A stretch of 64,000 nucleotides of DNA from Gemmatimonadota bacterium. GTDB lineage: Bacteria > Gemmatimonadota > Gemmatimonadetes > Gemmatimonadales > GWC2-71-9. Made by a program: the position numbers and the translations under genes. Under the pieces are notes generated by a model, which was not told where the DNA came from, did not search any database, and saw only the letters and a list, made by a program, of their open reading frames with translations. Shown here in pieces: positions 7,185 through 62,870 of this stretch. The stretch lies in NCBI GenBank assembly GCA_039591615.1, contig JBDHDH010000011.1:860-64859 (forward strand), given 5' to 3'. Each line of letters begins with the position of its first letter. Position 1 is the first letter of the stretch.

Positions 7185-8951
7185 CTACCGATATTCCAAC
7201 TCCTTTCTGGTGTAGATCTCGCCCCGTCGAACCACCAGGGCCGTTCGTCGCACGTTGGCGATATCGGACAGCGGATCATCATCGAGCACGACGAGGTCTG
7301 CCACAGCACCCGGCGTGACGGTTCCCACGCTATCGAGGCCCATGGCAAGGGCGCCGTTGCGCGTCGCGGCTACTAGAACCTCCATCGGCGTCAGACCGGT
7401 GGCCTGCATCGCTTCGAGCTCCATGAAGACCGAGGCCCCGTGCAACGTGAGTGGGTTCCCCGCATCAGTGCCGAGTACCACAGCGATGCCGGCATCGTGC
7501 ACGCGCTTCAGGTTCGCCTGCGCTTGTGCCAGCCGGCGAGCAGTCCGCTCCGTTCTCAGCTGCAGCTGCTCTGCCGGTACGCGCCGGTCGGACGCGACGG
7601 TGTCGGTGGCCAGCGCCTTCGTCCGCGTGCTCGGATCCACACAGCTGAGGGGCTGGAGATCCCGCTCGAACTTGCGTCCTGCGACCTGCCGGTACCCGTC
7701 GGGGACGAGGAGCGTCGGTGTGTAGACAGTACCAGCCGCCCGGGCAAGCTCGAGAAACTCGTCGTCCACCGGCTCCCTGCTTACCGAATGCACCAGGAGT
7801 GTGGCACCGGCTCGAACCGCATCCTTGGCTTCCCACAGGCCGGTGGCGTGCACAATGAGGGGAATGCCGGCCTTGCGCGCTTCGTCGCCGGCGGCGTGGA
7901 CCAGGACTGAGATACGCGTCGTGTCCGGCGGTTGTGGCGGCATGATGTACCACACTTTGACGGCTGCCGCACCCCATGCGGCGTGCGCTCGAACCGTCTG
8001 CCGCACTGTTCGCTCGTCCGCCATATAAATGAATTGCCGTTGCCCGGGAAGGTTGAGCCAGAAGTCGACGGTGGAGAGAAGCGGGCCCGCGGCGCGGACC
8101 GTCGGCGCTCCCGTACTGGTCGCGGTACGGGCCTCGAGCTGCCAGGTCCACGGGTATCCGCCCACATCGAAGACGCTCGTGACCCCGGCGCAGAGGTACG
8201 ACCGGAAGAACCGATCAGGATGGGCCGCGAGGTTCGCGACGGTTCGCTCATACGGGTGGTGGTTACGGAGATCGAGGGCATCCGGCCGGCCGTCTACCCA
8301 ACCGGTCTGTGAGAAATGCACGTGGGCGTCGATGAGTCCCGGAATGATCCATTTGCCCTTTGCGTCCACGCGGTGTGCATCGAGTGGAACGGGACACGCG
8401 CCCCTCGCCCCCGCGCATTCGACGCGGCCGCCACGCATGATCACCACCGCGTCTGGCACGGGTGGCGAGCCAGTGCCGTCCACCAGTGTCGCCCCCACGA
8501 GGGCCATGGGTGGCGGCGCGGCGCCCGGCGTGGAGAACGCCGTGGTCACCGCCACCTTCCAACCGTCCTCCGTCCGCACCAACACGCGCTCGCTGACGCC
8601 GCGATCGCTGGCGCCATCCGTGACCACGCGATAGCGATACGCGCCGTACGCGACGTCCGGTGTGATTGGAACCATCTCCATATGTGTCGCCACCAGCGTG
8701 TCGGGCCAGCTCTCCCCGGCGGCACGCGCGAAGCGATCGTAGCCCCGGATGAGCCCTGCCGGACCGACGCGTGCGAACGCGGGGGTTTGGACGTAACTCG
8801 AGAGGTACGCGGCCCGGTCGCGGGCGTGAATCGCCGCGATATTGGCGCGGAAGGCCTCGAGCGGTGTCTCTTGCGCTGGGAGGGGGGCAGCGCCGGTTGC
8901 GAGCAGACCGACGATCGCCGCGGGATGCAGCCGAGCAATACGGTGTGCCAT
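7185..8951 (-). CDS. Secreted amidohydrolase with N-terminal NTF2/SnoaL-like domain
   Basis: Signal peptide ending LPAQE, then about 130 aa of NTF2-like sequence, then an amidohydrolase core (IDAHVHF, VHATG, LGTDAGN). Confidence 0.8.
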   Translation of the reverse strand: MAHRIARLHPAAIVGLLATGAAPLPAQETPLEAFRANIAAIHARDRAAYLSSYVQTPAFARVGPAGLIRGYDRFARAAGESWPDTLVATHMEMVPITPDVAYGAYRYRVVTDGASDRGVSERVLVRTEDGWKVAVTTAFSTPGAAPPPMALVGATLVDGTGSPPVPDAVVIMRGGRVECAGARGACPVPLDAHRVDAKGKWIIPGLIDAHVHFSQTGWVDGRPDALDLRNHHPYERTVANLAAHPDRFFRSYLCAGVTSVFDVGGYPWTWQLEARTATSTGAPTVRAAGPLLSTVDFWLNLPGQRQFIYMADERTVRQTVRAHAAWGAAAVKVWYIMPPQPPDTTRISVLVHAAGDEARKAGIPLIVHATGLWEAKDAVRAGATLLVHSVSREPVDDEFLELARAAGTVYTPTLLVPDGYRQVAGRKFERDLQPLSCVDPSTRTKALATDTVASDRRVPAEQLQLRTERTARRLAQAQANLKRVHDAGIAVVLGTDAGNPLTLHGASVFMELEAMQATGLTPMEVLVAATRNGALAMGLDSVGTVTPGAVADLVVLDDDPLSDIANVRRTALVVRRGEIYTRKELEYR

Positions 8952-9668: not shown

Positions 9669-10694
9669 TCAAGGGTGATCGAGGAACTCCAGGATCTCTC
9701 GATTCACCATCTCCGCCTGCACAAACGTCAGGTCATGGCCGGCATCGGGAATGATCGCCGTGTTGATGTGGGGCGCGACCTCATTCAAGCGTTGGATGGC
9801 ACGCTCCGCGGAATAGATCTTTTCGTTTTCGCCCACCAAGAAGAGCGCAGGCACAGCCAGGCTTCGTAATTGCGAATCCGTGAGAACGGTGGGATTGACC
9901 AAGCGCTTCAGCTTGAAGCTCCGTACGGCGAGGTACACGGCATCCGCCTCTTCCTCCAACAGCGTTCGGCTCGCTTCATCCTTTCCGGCGAAGTCCTCGA
10001 GGAGCCAAAACAGAAAGGCTCTCGTGAAGTGGCGATGCGGCACCACGCTGAGTGAGGCGCGCAGAATCCAATCCGCTGACAACGGCAACACCGTCCCCGC
10101 AGGTGCTAGCAACACGATCCGATCGAGGCGACCCGGGAAGCGGAGCGCGTATTGGCTCGTCAGCCACCCTCCGTAGGACAGGCCGATGAGAGTAATGTCG
10201 TCTCCGAGATCGAGAGCAGTGAACGACTCGTCGAGCCATCTTGCGAAATCATCTGCGCTTTCGATGGTTCGCGTATACACGCTGCGCCCATAATCATAGA
10301 TGCCATCCACTGCGAACGTCCGGTACTGCTGGGACAGCGCTTCGATGTTTGGGACCCAATGGAGCGAATTCCCCCCGGCTCCGTGGAGCAATACGAGCGG
10401 TCGTCCACCGGTTGGTCCGCTGATCCTCACGAACGTCCGGCCAAACGACGTCTGCACCGTCGTGGTCTCCGCCGGGAGCGGCCACCTTTCGGCTCTCCCA
10501 TCGTAGAAGCTCAGATATCGCGCTTTGGCCCTTGTTGACCGGAAGGGGTGATATGCCGACTCTATGCCCCCGAATCCCGGAAAGAGCGAGATGCCGATCC
10601 AGGCGGCGACGAGAACCACGGCGACGATCATGGTTCCGCAGCCGAAGAGAACGAATCTCAGAATCGGCCTCTTTCTCAATGGGTCCCTCTCCAC
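9669..10694 (-). CDS. Membrane-anchored alpha/beta hydrolase
   Basis: N-terminal TM helix, then HGAGGNS oxyanion region, nucleophile elbow GLSYGG, and C-terminal DAGH. Confidence 0.8.
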   Translation of the reverse strand: MERDPLRKRPILRFVLFGCGTMIVAVVLVAAWIGISLFPGFGGIESAYHPFRSTRAKARYLSFYDGRAERWPLPAETTTVQTSFGRTFVRISGPTGGRPLVLLHGAGGNSLHWVPNIEALSQQYRTFAVDGIYDYGRSVYTRTIESADDFARWLDESFTALDLGDDITLIGLSYGGWLTSQYALRFPGRLDRIVLLAPAGTVLPLSADWILRASLSVVPHRHFTRAFLFWLLEDFAGKDEASRTLLEEEADAVYLAVRSFKLKRLVNPTVLTDSQLRSLAVPALFLVGENEKIYSAERAIQRLNEVAPHINTAIIPDAGHDLTFVQAEMVNREILEFLDHP

Positions 10695-10870: not shown

Positions 10871-12124
10871 TCAAAGAAGCACGCCAGATGACTGATCGAC
10901 GTCGAGCGATGGCGGTCGTGAGGGGCGCGAGAGGACGACCGCCACCGTCATGTCCGCGGTGACATTCGCCGTCGTGATGAACATGTCCGGGATGAGATCA
11001 AGGGCGATGAGCAGCCCGATGCCCTCGATGGGAAGGTTGAACGCCATGTAGATCGGTGCCATGATGAACAGCCCGCCGCTGGGAATGCCCGGGGAGTAGA
11101 AGCTCAGTGCCGCAATGGCCGCGGCGATGGCGGCAACCTCCACCGCATCAAGCTGAATCCCATAGAGTTGCGCCACGAAGAGCGTGCCCGTGAGCCGGGC
11201 GACGGGCGAGGAATACTTGAACACCGAGACGGCCAGAGGCAGAGCGATACCGGACACACGCTCGGGGAGCCCGAGGTCCCGCTCGGCACCCTCGAGCATG
11301 GCGGGGAGCGACGCCAGCGACGAACGCGTGCTGAAGGCCACTGCCTGCGCCGGCGCGCACGCCCGTGCGAACCGCCGGAGAGGTATGCCTCCGGCGAGCG
11401 TGGCAATGGGATACAGGACGACGAGGGCGACGACCAGTAACCCGCAGACTATGACAAGGAAAAGCCCAAGTGCACCGATGAGGCCCGCCCCGGTACGGGC
11501 GGCGAGTGGGAGGACCAGGAAGAACACGCCTATCGGTGCGACAACCAGGATCCATTCGACGATCACGAACATGGCCTTCGCCACCGCGTCGAAGAACTCT
11601 AACAGCACCTGCCGGCGCTTCATTTCCAGGCGGGTAATGGCCAATGCAACGATCGAGGTGAACACGATCAGTGGCAGCATGGCACCGTCGGCCGCGGCTC
11701 TTACGGGATTGGCCGGCACGAGGCCCACGAGCCAGTCCCGAAACGGTGGCAGTTCGATCTGGGCGCTGGGTCCCGGTTGGAGAGCGGGGACGATCGCCGT
11801 CGCATCGAATCGGGCTGCGGCGAGGAGCAGTGGGGCGGCGAGGGTGGCGAGGAGGGCACCCCCCGCAACGAGTGCCACGAACCAGAAGAGGGCGCGGCCG
11901 CCGATCTTGCCCACGCTCCTTGCGGTGTCCGAGGCGATGCCAGTAATCAGTAGCGACACCACCAGCGGGATCACCGTCATACGGATGGCGTTGACCCAGA
12001 GCGTGCCGATCGGTTCGACCACCGACACAGCCGTGAGCAACGTGGGTTGCCGGAGCCAGGAAACGCCGGTTCCGATGGCGAGACCGGCTACGAGGCCAAG
12101 AAGGACACGAGTCGTCAGGGACAT
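10871..12124 (-). CDS. Dicarboxylate/amino acid:cation symporter (DAACS family)
   Basis: 417-aa polytopic protein with DAACS-like segments (FDAVAKAMF, SSLASLP, NVTADM). Confidence 0.8.
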   Translation of the reverse strand: MSLTTRVLLGLVAGLAIGTGVSWLRQPTLLTAVSVVEPIGTLWVNAIRMTVIPLVVSLLITGIASDTARSVGKIGGRALFWFVALVAGGALLATLAAPLLLAAARFDATAIVPALQPGPSAQIELPPFRDWLVGLVPANPVRAAADGAMLPLIVFTSIVALAITRLEMKRRQVLLEFFDAVAKAMFVIVEWILVVAPIGVFFLVLPLAARTGAGLIGALGLFLVIVCGLLVVALVVLYPIATLAGGIPLRRFARACAPAQAVAFSTRSSLASLPAMLEGAERDLGLPERVSGIALPLAVSVFKYSSPVARLTGTLFVAQLYGIQLDAVEVAAIAAAIAALSFYSPGIPSGGLFIMAPIYMAFNLPIEGIGLLIALDLIPDMFITTANVTADMTVAVVLSRPSRPPSLDVDQSSGVLL

Positions 12125-39353: not shown

Positions 39354-40253
39354 ATGACGGCGGGCCCACAACACGAGTCCGCCGTCACTCATAACGACAC
39401 CTGGCCATGGTCCCCCGATGAGCGCCCGCACGTGACCGTCCACGACACTCGGGCACCCGCATCCGATCCATCCGGCCCATCCATCCCGCCGGCGGTGTGG
39501 TTCTTTCTCCTGACCGCGTTTGGGATCTCATGGGGTGCGATCTTTCTCAGGCGAGCCGCGGACGAGGGCTTGCGTCTGACGACGAAGTTCGGACCGAGCA
39601 TCGCCGGCCTGATCGCGGCCTTTCGCGTGGGCCGAATGGTGGGCGTCCGCGACATTACGCGCCGGCTATTAACCGTGCGCGTTCGCATCGCCTGGTTCGC
39701 ACTCTGCCTGTTCCTGCCGGTAATCATCTCGATGGGCTCCCTCGCCATCCGAAGCATCTTTGGCAGCGACGTGTGGAGAGCGAGCGAGGTCAATCTGATG
39801 AGTGGACTGGGATTGTACCTCTCGCTCCTGGCCACACGGCTCTTTGCCGGAGGTGGCTTGGGCGAGGAGTTGGGCTGGCGGGGATTCATGTTACCGCACC
39901 TTCAGGCTCGAATTGGCGCCCTCCACGCCAGCATCGTGATTGGCCTGTTCCACGGAGCCTGGCATCTCCCCGCGTACGGGATTGCCACCCTCTTTCTCAC
40001 GGTGTTCACCGTTTCAGGTGCCATCGTCTTCCCGTGAATGTACAATCGGACAGACGGGAATCTGCTGTTGCCAGCGCTGATGCACGCCTGTGCCAACGCT
40101 AGCCTCCCCGTCCTCGAAACGGTGTTTCCCATCATCGACGGAGAGCTCGCGTTCCCGCTCATCGTGTTCGGAGCGTGGGGGACCCTGGCGGTCCTTCTGG
40201 TGCTGGTGGCCGGGCCGTCGGGCCTCGGACCACCGCCAGCCGGGAGACGATAA
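39354..40253 (+). pseudogene. CPBP family intramembrane glutamic endopeptidase (CAAX protease/Abi) interrupted by one in-frame TGA at 40035-40037
   Basis: Motif 1 EELGWRG and motif 2 FHGAWH lie before the stop. Motif 3 (LLLPALMHACAN) is in the same frame immediately after it: ...GAIVFP-TGA-MYNRTDGNLL. Confidence 0.7.
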
Positions 40254-59410: not shown

Positions 59411-60136
59411 ATGCCGGGCCTCGACTTCCTCACAGCAGTCCAGAGCCTCTCGGAGTCGTTGAACCACCGCCCTCTGGTGGCCATGGTCAGTCTGTTCGGC
59501 GCCGGTCTGGTCACCAGCCTCACGCCGTGCGTCTACCCCATGATCCCTATCACGGCAGGCATCCTAGCGGGGAGCGCCGGAGCGAACGCCTCTCGCCTGC
59601 GAACGCTGGGGCTCACGCTGACGTACGTGTTGGGCCTTGCTCTCCTCTACGCGACGCTCGGGCTCATCGCCGGGCTGAGCGGTTCACTCTTCGGCACCGT
59701 CTCCGCCAACCCGTGGGCGCGGTTCGCCATCGGCAACCTGCTCCTCGTTTTCGGCCTTGCCATGTTGGACGTGTTTCCCGTCTCCGCGCCCCGGCGGCTG
59801 GTCGCTTGGGCCGCAAACCTCGGCGGAGGCTCATATCCGGCGGTGTTCCTGTTGGGAGCCACGTCGGGCATCGTCGCCGCGCCCTGCGGGGCGCCAGCGT
59901 TCGCCGCCGTGCTCACCTGGGTGGGCACCACCGGGAGCACCACGCTCGGCTTTACCTACCTCTTCGTGTTCTCGCTGGGGATGATGGCCTTGCTGGTGGC
60001 GGTGGGACTCTCGTCGGGCCTGCTGGCGGCCCTCCCCAAGTCCGGTCCCTGGATGACGTGGATCAAGAAGGTGGCCGGGATCGCACTGCTGGCGATGGCT
60101 GAATACTATTTCATACAGATGGGGATGGTGCTATGA
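59411..60136 (+). CDS. ccdA: Cytochrome c biogenesis/thiol-disulfide transporter CcdA (DsbD-family core)
   Basis: Six-TM protein with the two conserved Cys contexts LTPCVYPMIP and APCGAP. Confidence 0.85.
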   Translation: MPGLDFLTAVQSLSESLNHRPLVAMVSLFGAGLVTSLTPCVYPMIPITAGILAGSAGANASRLRTLGLTLTYVLGLALLYATLGLIAGLSGSLFGTVSANPWARFAIGNLLLVFGLAMLDVFPVSAPRRLVAWAANLGGGSYPAVFLLGATSGIVAAPCGAPAFAAVLTWVGTTGSTTLGFTYLFVFSLGMMALLVAVGLSSGLLAALPKSGPWMTWIKKVAGIALLAMAEYYFIQMGMVL

Positions 60137-60669
60137 CGCGTCTCCGCGTTTCGATTGTGTCGGTCGTGGTCACGACCCTCTTGGCCTCGTCCCCCCTCCC
60201 CTCTGCGGCTCAGATGGACGAGGTCGGCCTCCCCTTGGGATCGGCGCCGGACGCCGTCATCATCGAGGATCTCGACGGCAATCCGGTCGACCTGGGCCGG
60301 TGGGTGGGAAAAGCCCTCCTGTTACTGGAGTTCTGGGCCAGGTGGTGCGAGCAATGTGAGGCGCTCGAGCCTCGCATGCGGATCGCACACGAGCGTTACG
60401 GTGATCGGGTCGAGTTCCTGGCCGTGGGCGTGGGGGTCAACCAGAACCCGCGTTCGATCCGCCGCCATCTCACGAGGCACCCCATGCCGTTTCCGGTACT
60501 CTGGGATGGCGAGGGCAAAGCGACACGGGCGTTCAGGGCACCCACCACCTCGTACGTGGTGATTCTCGATGTGAACGGGAAGGTCGCGTACACCGGGGTC
60601 GGACCCGACCAGGATATCGAGGCGGCCGTGAGACGTGTGCTCGATGACCCTGCGACGGAGGAGCGATAA
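60133..60669 (+). CDS. Exported TlpA/ResA-like thioredoxin-fold thiol:disulfide oxidoreductase
   Basis: Its start overlaps the ccdA stop (ATGA). It has a signal peptide and the motif FWARWCEQC (CxxC). Confidence 0.8.
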   Translation: MTRLRVSIVSVVVTTLLASSPLPSAAQMDEVGLPLGSAPDAVIIEDLDGNPVDLGRWVGKALLLLEFWARWCEQCEALEPRMRIAHERYGDRVEFLAVGVGVNQNPRSIRRHLTRHPMPFPVLWDGEGKATRAFRAPTTSYVVILDVNGKVAYTGVGPDQDIEAAVRRVLDDPATEER

Positions 60670-60752: not shown

Positions 60753-61355
60753 TCAGTCTGCCGGTTCCTCTTCGTCCTCCGCCCGCTGCGCGATTCGGTC
60801 CAGAGCCTCGCCCAACTCCACGTACGCCTGCGGATCGACCTCACGGAACGGAGCAGCCACCCAAGCGATCCGCCCCTCGTTGTCGACAACAAAGAGTGTT
60901 CGGTTATCGATCAGCCCCTGTTCCCCCCGATCCCTGAACGCCCCGTACAGCTGACCAACTTCCGACCCCTCATCACTGGCAAACAAGAACGGGAACTCGT
61001 CGTCCCGCGCCCACGAAGACAGCTCCTCTGGGGTATCGGTGCTGATGCCGATGAGGACGATGTCGCGTCCACCGCGAAAGAGCGTTGCGTACTGATCACG
61101 GTACGCATGCATTTGGATCGTTCAGCCGCGTGTCCTTGCCCGGAAAAAGAATGCGAGGACAACCGTCTTGCCGCGAAAGTCACTGAGCTTCACGGGGTCC
61201 CGGAGGACGCCGTAGCGAGTGGCCCCCGGGACCGCAAAGTCCGGCGCCAGAGTGCCCACTTCGAGCGGTGTGGCTGTTGTCTGGGCAAGGAGAGTCGATG
61301 GCACGATGGCCAGCACCGCCACACCCATCAGCAGACTACCTATGCCGAGTCGCAT
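60753..61355 (-). CDS. Exported peroxiredoxin (AhpC/TSA-redoxin fold) with in-frame UGA at the peroxidatic-Cys position: candidate selenoprotein, or a nonsense pseudogene
   Basis: Track ORFs 61122-61355 and 60753-61112 share one frame. The joined sequence reads ...KTVVLAFFFRARTRG-[TGA 61124-61122]-TIQMHAYRDQY...DNRTLFVVDNEGRIAWV. The N-terminus is a signal peptide. Confidence 0.6.
61086..61107 (-). other. Candidate bacterial SECIS-like hairpin 14 nt downstream of the in-frame UGA
   Basis: mRNA UGCGUAC-CGUGAUCA-GUACGCA forms a perfect 7-bp stem with an 8-nt loop containing GU. Confidence 0.35.
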
Positions 61356-61516
61356 GCGAAGTGCTCCAGAGGTCTGAAGGAAGAGTTGTCACAATATAGA
61401 TGGAGAGTGCTCCAGCGGTCAGCAGCTCCGGCTTGGGGAACTTTGCAGCTCAGTCCAATTACCACTGGACGACAACTGGCGCGCAACCAGCACCCCGCGC
61501 ATCTTCACGGGGCCCT

Positions 61517-61837
61517 TTAGCCCATGCCCAGGAAACCTCCACCCTTCTTGGTCGATCGGACCAACTCCAGCTGGATGAAGTGCGGTTCCTCCTCGCAGTT
61601 CGAGTACAGGAGCTCGACGAATCTCCTGGTGTGCGCAGCGGACCGGTGACGCTTCGCGGCCTGTTCATCGGGAAACGCCATCGCATGAAAGAACGAACGA
61701 CCATCTGCGGCGACGAACGCCCCATAGATGGTGTTCGGTTCGTTCGCCCGAATGTCGTCGACGAACTGGGTCACCACCTGCTGCACTTGGTCTACGGCGT
61801 CGGCCTTGACGCGGTATTGAACGAGCAGTCGGATCAT
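61517..61837 (-). CDS. ABM (antibiotic biosynthesis monooxygenase-like, dimeric alpha-beta barrel) domain protein
   Basis: GGAGG RBS. MIRLLVQYRVKADAVDQV...FFHAMAFPDEQAAKRH is typical of the ABM fold. Confidence 0.55.
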   Translation of the reverse strand: MIRLLVQYRVKADAVDQVQQVVTQFVDDIRANEPNTIYGAFVAADGRSFFHAMAFPDEQAAKRHRSAAHTRRFVELLYSNCEEEPHFIQLELVRSTKKGGGFLGMG

Positions 61838-62141
61838 CGGTCGCCTCCAAGAATGGCTCAGACCTCCTCGTCGCCGGGTCCCCACGGCCGGCTTCATATG
61901 ACCAACCTGGCCGCGGTCAGCCCAAGACCGACGTGGGTGTCGAGCCTCACCACGGGGCGGAAAGTGGACGTGCCGCCAAACGCAAGCTACGGTGGCGCGG
62001 GACGATGGCAACGGCTTCTCGCCCGTCCAGCGAAGTCACCTTACTTTACGCAGGCATGCCTCGGGCGCCACCAGCCAAGCCGCGCCGGGCGCATGCCACT
62101 AGCCCTGCTCGGGTTTTGTCGGATCGGGTTGGAGGAACCTC

Positions 62142-62870
62142 ATGGTTTACGACGAAGGGTGTTATGGAGAGGTCACCTTGGGATCGCTTCCCGGCGACGT
62201 ACAACAACGGCTCTTGGCTCTGCCAGGCGAATGGCTCGAGTACGACGGCACCAGCGGCCGCATTGTTGTGCGACACACAGAGCCCACATCGCCGAACCTC
62301 CCCACCATCGTCTTCGAGCTGGTCCAAATGCTGTCAACGATTCCGGCGGGTCTGCAGTCAGTCATCGCCGGCGGTGACTTTTTCGTGCACGTGGAGCACA
62401 CGGGCGAATTCGTTCGCCTCCATGTTGAGTCAGGTGGTGGATTGCACATCAACTGGGCCCATCCCAGCTTCACCCGTGCCAAGAAGCGCGCGTACTCCGG
62501 TGGGCAGGTGACCCCCATCGAACCCTACGTGCAGCGGTTGAACGGCCGCGTGACGCTGGCCGTGCACGATCCAGCTTCCGCGGCTCGCGAGCTCCAGGCC
62601 CTGGCCGACACGTTCGAAGGCCTCTATCCGGAAGGCGAATACCGGACCACTGCGGACGAATCGGCCGGCACGGTGAGGGTCGAGATGCAGGATGTGAACC
62701 TCGATAGTCAGGTTCTGGTAGACCGGCTGGAGCGATTGGCCAAGCCTCGGAGCCTCAGTGGAAGTGTGGTGGTGAGTGCGTTCGGCGAGCCGCAACCGGA
62801 ACACGGCATTCGCTTTCTGTTCGAGAACGGCGAGATCTGGTTGCAGCGACCCCTGATGTGGCAGGAATAG
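62142..62870 (+). CDS. Hypothetical protein
   Basis: GGAGGA RBS 6 nt upstream. A 242-aa ORF with coding-like composition and no family that I recognise. Confidence 0.55.
   Translation: MVYDEGCYGEVTLGSLPGDVQQRLLALPGEWLEYDGTSGRIVVRHTEPTSPNLPTIVFELVQMLSTIPAGLQSVIAGGDFFVHVEHTGEFVRLHVESGGGLHINWAHPSFTRAKKRAYSGGQVTPIEPYVQRLNGRVTLAVHDPASAARELQALADTFEGLYPEGEYRTTADESAGTVRVEMQDVNLDSQVLVDRLERLAKPRSLSGSVVVSAFGEPQPEHGIRFLFENGEIWLQRPLMWQE

Follow-up and report, generated by a model that had tools for sequence, protein, structure and literature searches.

Does a UGA codon in the middle of a predicted exported peroxiredoxin (Prx) gene end that gene, or is it read as selenocysteine (Sec)? The question is raised by a stretch of 64,000 nucleotides from a Gemmatimonadota bacterium (assembly GCA_039591615.1, contig JBDHDH010000011.1, positions 860 to 64,859), here called the window, in which two adjacent open reading frames (ORFs) on the minus strand are parted by a TGA at the place of the peroxidatic cysteine (Cp). 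Here, we show by comparison with relatives in genome and metagenome collections that the gene is intact, that its UGA is conserved, that the hairpin just downstream is conserved and covaries, that both halves of the gene are under selection and that its neighbourhood is conserved as well. The conserved TGA, the covarying hairpin and the purifying selection on both halves strongly support the selenoprotein that the original prediction had proposed, and we consider it very probable that the locus is a functional, intact Sec-encoding gene with a true selenocysteine insertion sequence (SECIS). That the inserted residue is Sec we infer from the Sec/Cys pairing among relatives, the geometry of the SECIS, the pattern of conservation and the fact that no other mechanism is known by which a UGA at a catalytic site would stay under selection. 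Such criteria are used in the field for high-confidence selenoprotein prediction, and they are not proof (PMC13188914).

The upstream ORF (61355..61122, minus strand) encodes 77 residues and stops at the TGA at 61124-61122. The downstream ORF (61112..60753, minus strand) starts with ATG in the same frame and encodes 119 residues, and the gap between the two consists of the TGA and the three codons ACG ATC CAA. In the list that follows, as in the rest of the text, Sec forms are relatives with TGA in the Cp column and Cys forms are relatives with Cys there. The features that carry the argument are:

60753..61355, minus strand: complete putative selenoprotein gene of 200 codons, from the ATG at 61355-61353 to the terminal TGA at 60755-60753, encoding a predicted exported 1-Sec peroxiredoxin of the BCP/PrxQ type
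61122..61124, minus strand: in-frame UGA at the Cp position, the presumed Sec codon, placed by alignment with Cp of the structures 2ywn and 2cx3 and kept as TGA in relatives
61122..61145, minus strand: active-site motif F-R-A-R-T-R-G-U, the F/YxxxTxxU counterpart of PxxxTxxC, placed by alignment with structures and relatives
60900..60902, minus strand: codon of the conserved catalytic Arg (R152, in DNRTLF), which is Arg in 124/124 Sec forms and 109/109 Cys forms

On the joined 200-residue product the Pfam domain AhpC-TSA (PF00578) covers residues 33-165 and model positions 1-123 of 124 (E = 1.3e-25). The match spans the junction, and the domain thus runs uninterrupted across the TGA. BCP structures in the PDB match the product as well (phmmer, best E = 2.5e-15), and in these alignments the TGA column coincides with Cp of 2ywn and 2cx3, both solved BCP/PrxQ structures. 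The local sequence reads F-R-A-R-T-R-G-U-T-I-Q-M, with a Thr three residues ahead of the UGA and a Phe where Pro is usual. The original prediction had described two same-frame ORFs split by a TGA and three codons, a joined product made of a signal peptide and a complete peroxidase fold, a UGA three residues after a Thr at the Cp site and a later Arg in DNRTLF. All of this is borne out, at the same coordinates: the domain spans the junction, the UGA aligns exactly with Cp, the Arg is invariant in all relatives, and a signal peptide is recognizable by eye. No NCBIfam model reaches its cutoff on the joined protein, the PrxU equivalog NF040737 scoring 52.9 bits against a curated cutoff of 270. Judged by its sequence, the protein is probably a BCP/PrxQ-type peroxiredoxin of the AhpC/TSA fold with peroxidase activity. 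Cys is absent from 141/141 complete Sec forms, which consequently lack the resolving Cys of a 2-Cys mechanism; this argues for a 1-Sec (1-Cys-type) mechanism, in which the selenenic acid would be resolved by an external thiol.

How far is the UGA shared? A scan of GTDB with one genome per species returned 359 stretches that encode relatives, and the counts given here cover the best 80. Those among these 80 that carry a taxonomic label are all metagenome-assembled genomes (MAGs) of Gemmatimonadota, from Gemmatimonadales and Longimicrobiales, two complete chromosomes included; complete genomes with the gene are, for example, CP070716.1 and CP070812.1. The Cp column holds TGA in 79 of the 80 species representatives and TGC in the remaining one (L080). 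A metagenome scan seeded with a Cys-form profile, and so aimed at Cys-form DNA, returned mostly Sec forms (TGA at 75 and TGC at 5 of 80 loci). Overall, 151 distinct sequences have TGA and 4 have TGC in this column; the contrast between Sec and Cys forms drawn below rests on these 4 distinct Cys-form DNAs together with 109 Cys-form proteins. Every relative without the TGA has Cys at the homologous column (109 Cys-form relatives), the arrangement of a Sec/Cys pair. The same division runs through the protein databases: the closest relatives there (about 80% identity) are all 116-117 residues long and start at the same Met, and their DNA is split at the same TGA, while the full-length relatives have 190-200 residues, 55-68% identity and the motif FFP[RK]ARTxGC.

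The sequences on either side of the TGA behave as parts of one working gene. Synonymous divergence among the Sec forms has reached saturation (median dS about 1.0 upstream of the TGA and 0.92 downstream of it). The ratio dN/dS amounts to 0.195 over the 42 codons that precede the TGA and to 0.33 over codons +13 to +60, which indicates that both halves are translated and under purifying selection. Position -3 is Thr in 115, Ser in 7 and Gly in 2 Sec forms, hence Thr or Ser in 122/124. TGA also serves as ordinary terminator in 40 of the 141 genes of the set, the window gene included (60755-60753), so UGA has not been reassigned genome-wide. The alignment of orthologues at the Cp column, which had been suggested as a check on the original prediction, speaks clearly for Sec, with TGA in 79/80 GTDB representatives and in 151 distinct sequences. 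One Gemmatimonadota MAG from soil of the Salar de Ascotan (JAXHMG010000003.1; L088) carries two tandem Sec-peroxiredoxin copies, with TGAs at 10235-10237 and 10920-10922. Each copy has its own TGA and hairpin, and one of them has CTG for ATG at codon +4.

What could direct Sec to this UGA? A hairpin begins 14 nt past it:

61086..61107, minus strand: candidate bacterial SECIS hairpin, with a stem of 7 bp (61107-61101 paired with 61092-61086) and a loop of 8 nt, CGUGAUCA (61100-61093)

According to the published model, a bacterial SECIS (bSECIS) has a loop of 3-9 nt, a stem of 4-16 bp and a G in the first two loop positions (PMC13188914, Fig. 2A), together with a UGA-to-loop distance of 16-37 nt and a minimum free energy (MFE) of at most -7.5 kcal/mol (PMC13188914). 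The window hairpin, with its loop of 8 nt beginning C-G-U, its stem of 7 bp, its spacing of 21 nt and its MFE of -8.6 kcal/mol alone or -10.7 kcal/mol with two further pairs, lies within all of these limits, and the SECIS-like size and spacing noted earlier for this 7-bp stem and 8-nt loop are thereby confirmed. Over 151/151 Sec forms the MFE of the hairpin ranges from -7.8 to -11.8 kcal/mol, whereas the four Cys-form DNAs reach only -2.3 to -7.0 kcal/mol in the same region. The Cys-form DNAs encode the same peptide, AYRDQY, through other codons (gcc tat cgc gac), and they lack the hairpin because these synonymous codons differ.

Conservation of the hairpin is visible at the level of nucleotides. 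At codons +6 to +11, 146-151 of the 151 Sec-form sequences read GCG TAC CGT GAT CAG TAC, and the CGT and GAT fixed within the hairpin contrast with flanking Arg and Asp positions, which mostly take other codons. Third-position entropy is 0-0.21 bits in codons +6 to +11 compared with 0.3-1.8 bits in the flanks, and dS drops to 0.38 over codons +1 to +12 after the TGA, compared with about 1.0. RNAalifold, applied to an ungapped alignment of 82 distinct Sec-form segments, predicts exactly the hairpin at 61107-61086. Its closing pair is UA in 34 segments, CG in 29 and GC in 4, with no one-sided change and 15 mismatches, and links two third-codon positions, one in His/Asn CAY/AAY and the other in Ala GCN. 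The observed covariation score and paired fraction were reached by 0/500 column shuffles, and sliding the partner destroys the pairing. A conserved downstream hairpin, the second check suggested for this locus, is thus found, with one covarying pair and with no counterpart in the Cys forms. Rfam detected no family at the gathering threshold in the whole window, and a permissive search of 60950-61250 gave noise. A scan of both strands of 3.4 Mb for the loop motif on a stem of 5 bp or more returned only the peroxiredoxin sites and chance hits. Two of the chance hits lie inside ccdA (L019, minus strand, near 1767; L023, minus strand, near 8818), with their TGA out of frame; this hairpin (GTGAT-type loop, ...PMIPITAGVI...) was rejected as a SECIS, as it is explained by the coding sequence of CcdA.

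Several points weigh against a Sec-encoding gene with its own SECIS. Six of the seven stem pairs are invariant and the closing pair is mismatched in 15/82 sequences, so that the covariation rests on one pair. The single-sequence fold of 61060-61130 does not exceed dinucleotide shuffles in stability (z = +0.48); a lone sequence cannot decide the matter, and the reality of the hairpin rests on the comparison across species and not on thermodynamics. The loop does not fit the commonest bSECIS sub-pattern, N-G-[G/U]-N-N. ARAGORN detected tRNA-Sec neither in the window nor in 56 loci. When SelA, SelB and SelD of E. coli were compared by tblastn with the window and with about 1.6 Mb from related loci, the sole match was a weak one to a GTPase domain in L060, which means that the sel genes are not linked to the Prx gene and no more than that. 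The Prx gene is convergent with the neighbouring ccdA and tlpA genes and forms no operon with them, so the link to a reductant, discussed below, is one of guilt by association. Finally, prior expectation counts against such a gene in this phylum. Gemmatimonadota are largely aerobic. Reviews state that aerobes rarely keep selenoproteins (PMC13188914).

How might the selenoprotein be made and work? We propose that the UGA at 61124-61122 would be recoded as Sec during translation, the hairpin 14 nt downstream recruiting SelB with Sec-tRNA(Sec) to the ribosome to give a 200-residue precursor, which its signal peptide would direct to the cell envelope. There the selenolate, positioned by the conserved Thr and Arg of the F/YxxxTxxU site, would reduce peroxides and become a selenenic acid. 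As a Cys-free 1-Sec enzyme, the protein would depend on an external thiol, and electrons could pass from cytoplasmic thioredoxin to CcdA, on to an exported TlpA-like thioredoxin and finally to the Sec-Prx. Further features of the gene that bear on its expression and export are:

61284..61355, minus strand: putative signal peptide (residues 1-24, MRLGIGSLLMGVAVLAIVPSTLLA), probably cleaved by signal peptidase I ahead of QT, judged by eye
61364..61367, minus strand: GGAG, a Shine-Dalgarno-like element 8 nt 5' of the ATG, read from the sequence and putative
61393..61422, minus strand: sigma-70-like promoter match, CTGACC, an 18-nt spacer and TATATT, a match to the consensus only

By eye, the N-terminus (MRLGIGSLLMGVAVLAIVPSTLLA|QT) has the n/h/c layout of a Sec-type (secretory) signal, in which a positive n-region is followed by a hydrophobic core and by A|Q as the context of cleavage. 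The N-termini of relatives are likewise hydrophobic and most of them end in A-Q, and the protein is probably exported.

Where would the reducing equivalents come from? Two genes that converge on the Prx gene offer an answer:

60133..60669, plus strand: TlpA-like thioredoxin, predicted exported, with a WCEQC motif (Pfam Redoxin, AhpC-TSA, Thioredoxin_8), the convergent neighbour and proposed direct reductant
59411..60136, plus strand: CcdA/DsbD_TM membrane electron transporter (Pfam DsbD_TM, E = 1.1e-45), the proposed carrier of cytoplasmic reducing equivalents

CcdA and TlpA-like genes lie within 0.35-4.5 kb of the Prx gene in 48 of 58 loci with at least 4 kb on each side. In Caulobacter an envelope route from ScsB via TlpA to PprX has been established experimentally (PMC3322552), and the gene set of such a pathway, a Prx and a TlpA-like thioredoxin that are both predicted to be exported and a transporter of the DsbD superfamily, is encoded in full at the locus. 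By analogy with Caulobacter we regard recycling through CcdA and the TlpA-like protein as reasonably likely. In two loci (L001, 10567-13735; L008, 2380-8935) genes for a HEAT-repeat protein (557 residues) and an HD-domain protein (497 residues) stand between the Sec-Prx and TlpA/CcdA genes; the pair is tandemly duplicated in L008, and the insertion is absent from the window. On the other side, 5' of the Prx gene, the window encodes a protein with an antibiotic biosynthesis monooxygenase-like (ABM) domain (61517-62011, minus strand) and, beyond it, a 242-residue protein without a Pfam match (62142-62870, plus strand). Both genes also flank the Prx gene in the re-assemblies L174-L176 of the window gene.

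The most discriminating single column between Sec and Cys forms is position -7, where the window protein has Phe and not the Pro of PxxxTxxC. The Sec forms have Phe in 88, Tyr in 34 and Ile in 2 cases and never Pro (n = 124), whereas the Cys forms have Pro in 107, Tyr in 1 and Phe in 1 (n = 109). The Pro has been called absolutely conserved in peroxiredoxins (PMC3322552), and the known Sec-Prx family has a highly conserved PxxxTxxU motif (PMC13188914); on the evidence of these alignments, the Sec-Prx clade of Gemmatimonadota is a motif variant, F/YxxxTxxU. The Phe had been noted at the outset as a caveat. The observation stands, but its reading as a sign of decay does not, since Phe or Tyr is the hallmark of the Sec forms. 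To explain the pairing of selenium with an aromatic residue by shielding of the selenolate or by altered local unfolding for recycling is speculation on our part. The two Cys forms with Tyr or Phe at -7, both from the protein database (P0048, FFYKARTRGC; P0089, FFFRVRTTGC), alone depart from the rule that Cys goes with Pro and Sec with Phe or Tyr; they may be evolutionary intermediates or revertants from Sec to Cys. A quick neighbour-joining tree does not split Sec from Cys forms cleanly, its best split uniting 87/109 Cys forms with 3 Sec forms, and on this ground we make no claim on the number of conversions between Cys and Sec.

Both the neighbourhood and the missing Pro bear on an alternative in which Sec is encoded but the enzyme is no peroxidase. 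Its role would then be that of a thiol-disulfide or selenosulfide oxidoreductase which serves the CcdA/TlpA pathway, such as in the maturation of cytochromes or copper proteins. TlpA-like proteins and CcdA are classically tied to cytochrome maturation, and PrxL of Caulobacter resembles a peroxiredoxin and has no detectable peroxidase activity (PMC3322552); the 'absolutely conserved' Pro, moreover, is gone. However, the catalytic triad of Thr-x-x-U and Arg that is specific to peroxidatic peroxiredoxins is intact, the best matches are bona fide BCP/PrxQ peroxidases, and the protein has neither a CxxC nor a UxxC motif. We therefore regard this alternative as unlikely.

Might the UGA be passed by other means than Sec? 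Downstream hairpins can stimulate read-through in other systems, and near-cognate read-through of this kind would place Trp, Cys or Arg at the UGA. Alternatively, translation could re-initiate at the Met three codons later and yield two polypeptides that assemble. No gene of the Sec machinery turned up in the window or in the related loci, and a start-capable codon stands at +4 in nearly all sequences (ATG in 150/151), as re-initiation would need. Yet the Met at +4 is equally conserved in the Cys forms (GCTIQM), which makes it a structural residue, and +4 is CTG in one Sec form (L088) and GTG in another (L153). A split product, or one with Trp at Cp, would have no nucleophile, and still the catalytic Thr and Arg are under selection. 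Cys occupies the homologous column in every relative without the TGA, the classical signature of a Sec/Cys pair, and the geometry of the hairpin fits the bSECIS model (PMC13188914). Recoding other than to Sec thus appears distinctly improbable, and insertion of Sec remains the reading that we prefer.

A pseudogene has very little to recommend it. A nonsense change from TGC or TGT to TGA in a decaying Cys peroxiredoxin, the alternative raised together with the original prediction, would need only one transition or transversion, and broken genes have been seen elsewhere in the window, a possible case being an ORF with a TGA at 40035-40037. But the same TGA recurs in 151 distinct sequences from at least two orders, dN/dS stays at 0.2-0.33 before and after the stop although dS is about 1, the catalytic Thr and Arg are conserved, and a covarying hairpin would not be kept in a decaying gene. 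Nor can the relatives be contaminants of one clone, given identities of 55-80%. The conservation of the TGA and the purifying selection on both of its sides refute this explanation. An error of sequencing or assembly at this single base is practically excluded: metagenome assemblies do contain errors, and two re-assemblies of the gene carry deletions in the signal-peptide region, yet the TGA is found in 5/5 independent assemblies of the window gene from different JGI samples, three of which show 100% identity over all 603 nt, and again in about 150 diverged relatives.

The two deviating re-assemblies differ in kind. One (L174, JGI 3300041086) has a 51-nt in-frame deletion in the signal-peptide region and loses AIVPSTLLAQTTATPLE; the other (L176, JGI 3300041080) has a frameshifting deletion there. 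Both deletions are confined to that region, with the TGA and the rest of the gene unchanged, and may be strain variants or assembly artefacts. A scan of the window for further TGAs that split a frame gave antisense ORFs, adjacent genes that share a frame and one possibly broken CPBP protease. The latter is the ORF with the TGA at 40035-40037 (plus strand), which resembles intramembrane proteases of the CPBP/CAAX type (...EELGWRGF...HGAWH...FP*MYNRTDGNLLLPALMHACANAS), and where the TGA stands, most members of the CPBP family carry an aromatic residue. The ORF may be genuinely broken (TGG to TGA) or reflect an error, and probably belongs to the broken genes that the original prediction mentioned.

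What does the Sec-encoding gene add to current knowledge? The principle of a Sec-Prx is already known, and the gene does not represent a new mechanism. As far as established, the following points are new: the lineage, with the gene near-universal in species representatives of Gemmatimonadota; the F/YxxxTxxU motif; a Cys-free 1-Sec protein that bears an export signal; neighbouring CcdA and TlpA genes that are conserved; and the way the gene appears in databases, cut into two fragments in the protein collection and reaching the cutoff of no NCBIfam model. Gene callers break the gene at the UGA, leaving fragments of about 60-92 and 116-119 residues in the protein collection, some of them named 'peroxiredoxin'. 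Because of this split and the lack of a matching NCBIfam model, hundreds of Gemmatimonadota genomes are likely to lack an envelope peroxidase in their annotation, which a family-specific model with a Sec column would repair.

The finding also implies Sec decoding across Gemmatimonadota. We found no mention of Sec use in this phylum in the selenoproteome reviews, surveys and survey supplements searched, the sole trace of the phylum being Gemmatimonas aurantiaca T-27 in a list of genomes analysed. Gemmatimonadota live mostly in oxic soils, a setting in which selenoproteins are considered rare (PMC13188914). It is possible, although we hold it to be doubtful, that Gemmatimonadota depend on selenium for an envelope peroxidase almost phylum-wide, and that the change from Pro to Phe or Tyr is a specific structural adaptation of the selenolate site to an oxidising periplasm, which might shield the selenolate or tune how TlpA recycles the selenenic acid. 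If true, such a dependence would define a distinct F/YxxxTxxU subclass of peroxiredoxins and a counter-example to the shedding of selenoproteins by aerobes. With Sec coupled almost perfectly to Phe or Tyr, and Cys to Pro, the family can serve as a natural experiment on how a Prx active site is retuned from sulfur to selenium, and the near-invariant SECIS over about 150 diverged sequences gives clean access to the recognition by SelB in these bacteria.

How does the window gene compare with known systems? Sec-Prx are among the commoner predicted bacterial selenoproteins (PMC13188914, PMC5029168, PMC1088965), predicted in 78 organisms (PMC5029168) and represented by 43 genes in the Sargasso Sea data (PMC1088965); their founding member is PrxU of Eubacterium acidaminophilum (Sohling et al. 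2001, as cited in PMC13188914). With this family (PF00578, TxxU) the window gene shares the AhpC/TSA fold, a Sec that replaces Cp three residues after a Thr, a SECIS within the coding sequence just past the UGA and widespread Cys homologues. It differs in that its product scores far below the PrxU model (52.9 versus 270 bits), in that 122/124 of the Gemmatimonadota Sec forms have Phe or Tyr for the Pro of PxxxTxxU, and in that the protein has a predicted signal peptide, contains no Cys, adjoins ccdA and tlpA and comes from Gemmatimonadota.

The Cys-form paralogues or orthologues within Gemmatimonadota (for example P0002, P0003, P0068, L080 and L100; 50-61% identity in alignment A4) resemble the window protein in length, signal peptide, GxTIQMxAYRD core and Arg, and L100 at least also in its CcdA/TlpA neighbourhood. 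These Cys forms differ by TGC at Cp, Pro at -7 and the absence of the hairpin, and gene callers annotate them at full length. The selenoproteins known as Prx-like thiol:disulfide oxidoreductases likewise have a thioredoxin fold, match PF00578 and are probably active in the envelope too (PMC13188914, PMC1088965). In contrast to their thioredoxin-like UxxC, the window protein has a peroxidatic TxxU with a catalytic Arg and no second redox residue. PprX of Caulobacter crescentus, like the window protein (here by prediction), is an exported Prx of the BCP/PrxQ type that goes together with a TlpA-like thioredoxin and a transporter of the DsbD superfamily (PMC3322552). PprX, however, uses Cys, keeps PxxxTxxC and has a resolving Cys, and its transporter is ScsB and not a minimal CcdA (PMC3322552). 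Its pathway has been worked out experimentally (PMC3322552), whereas the one proposed here for the Sec-Prx of Gemmatimonadota is suggested by gene neighbourhood only.

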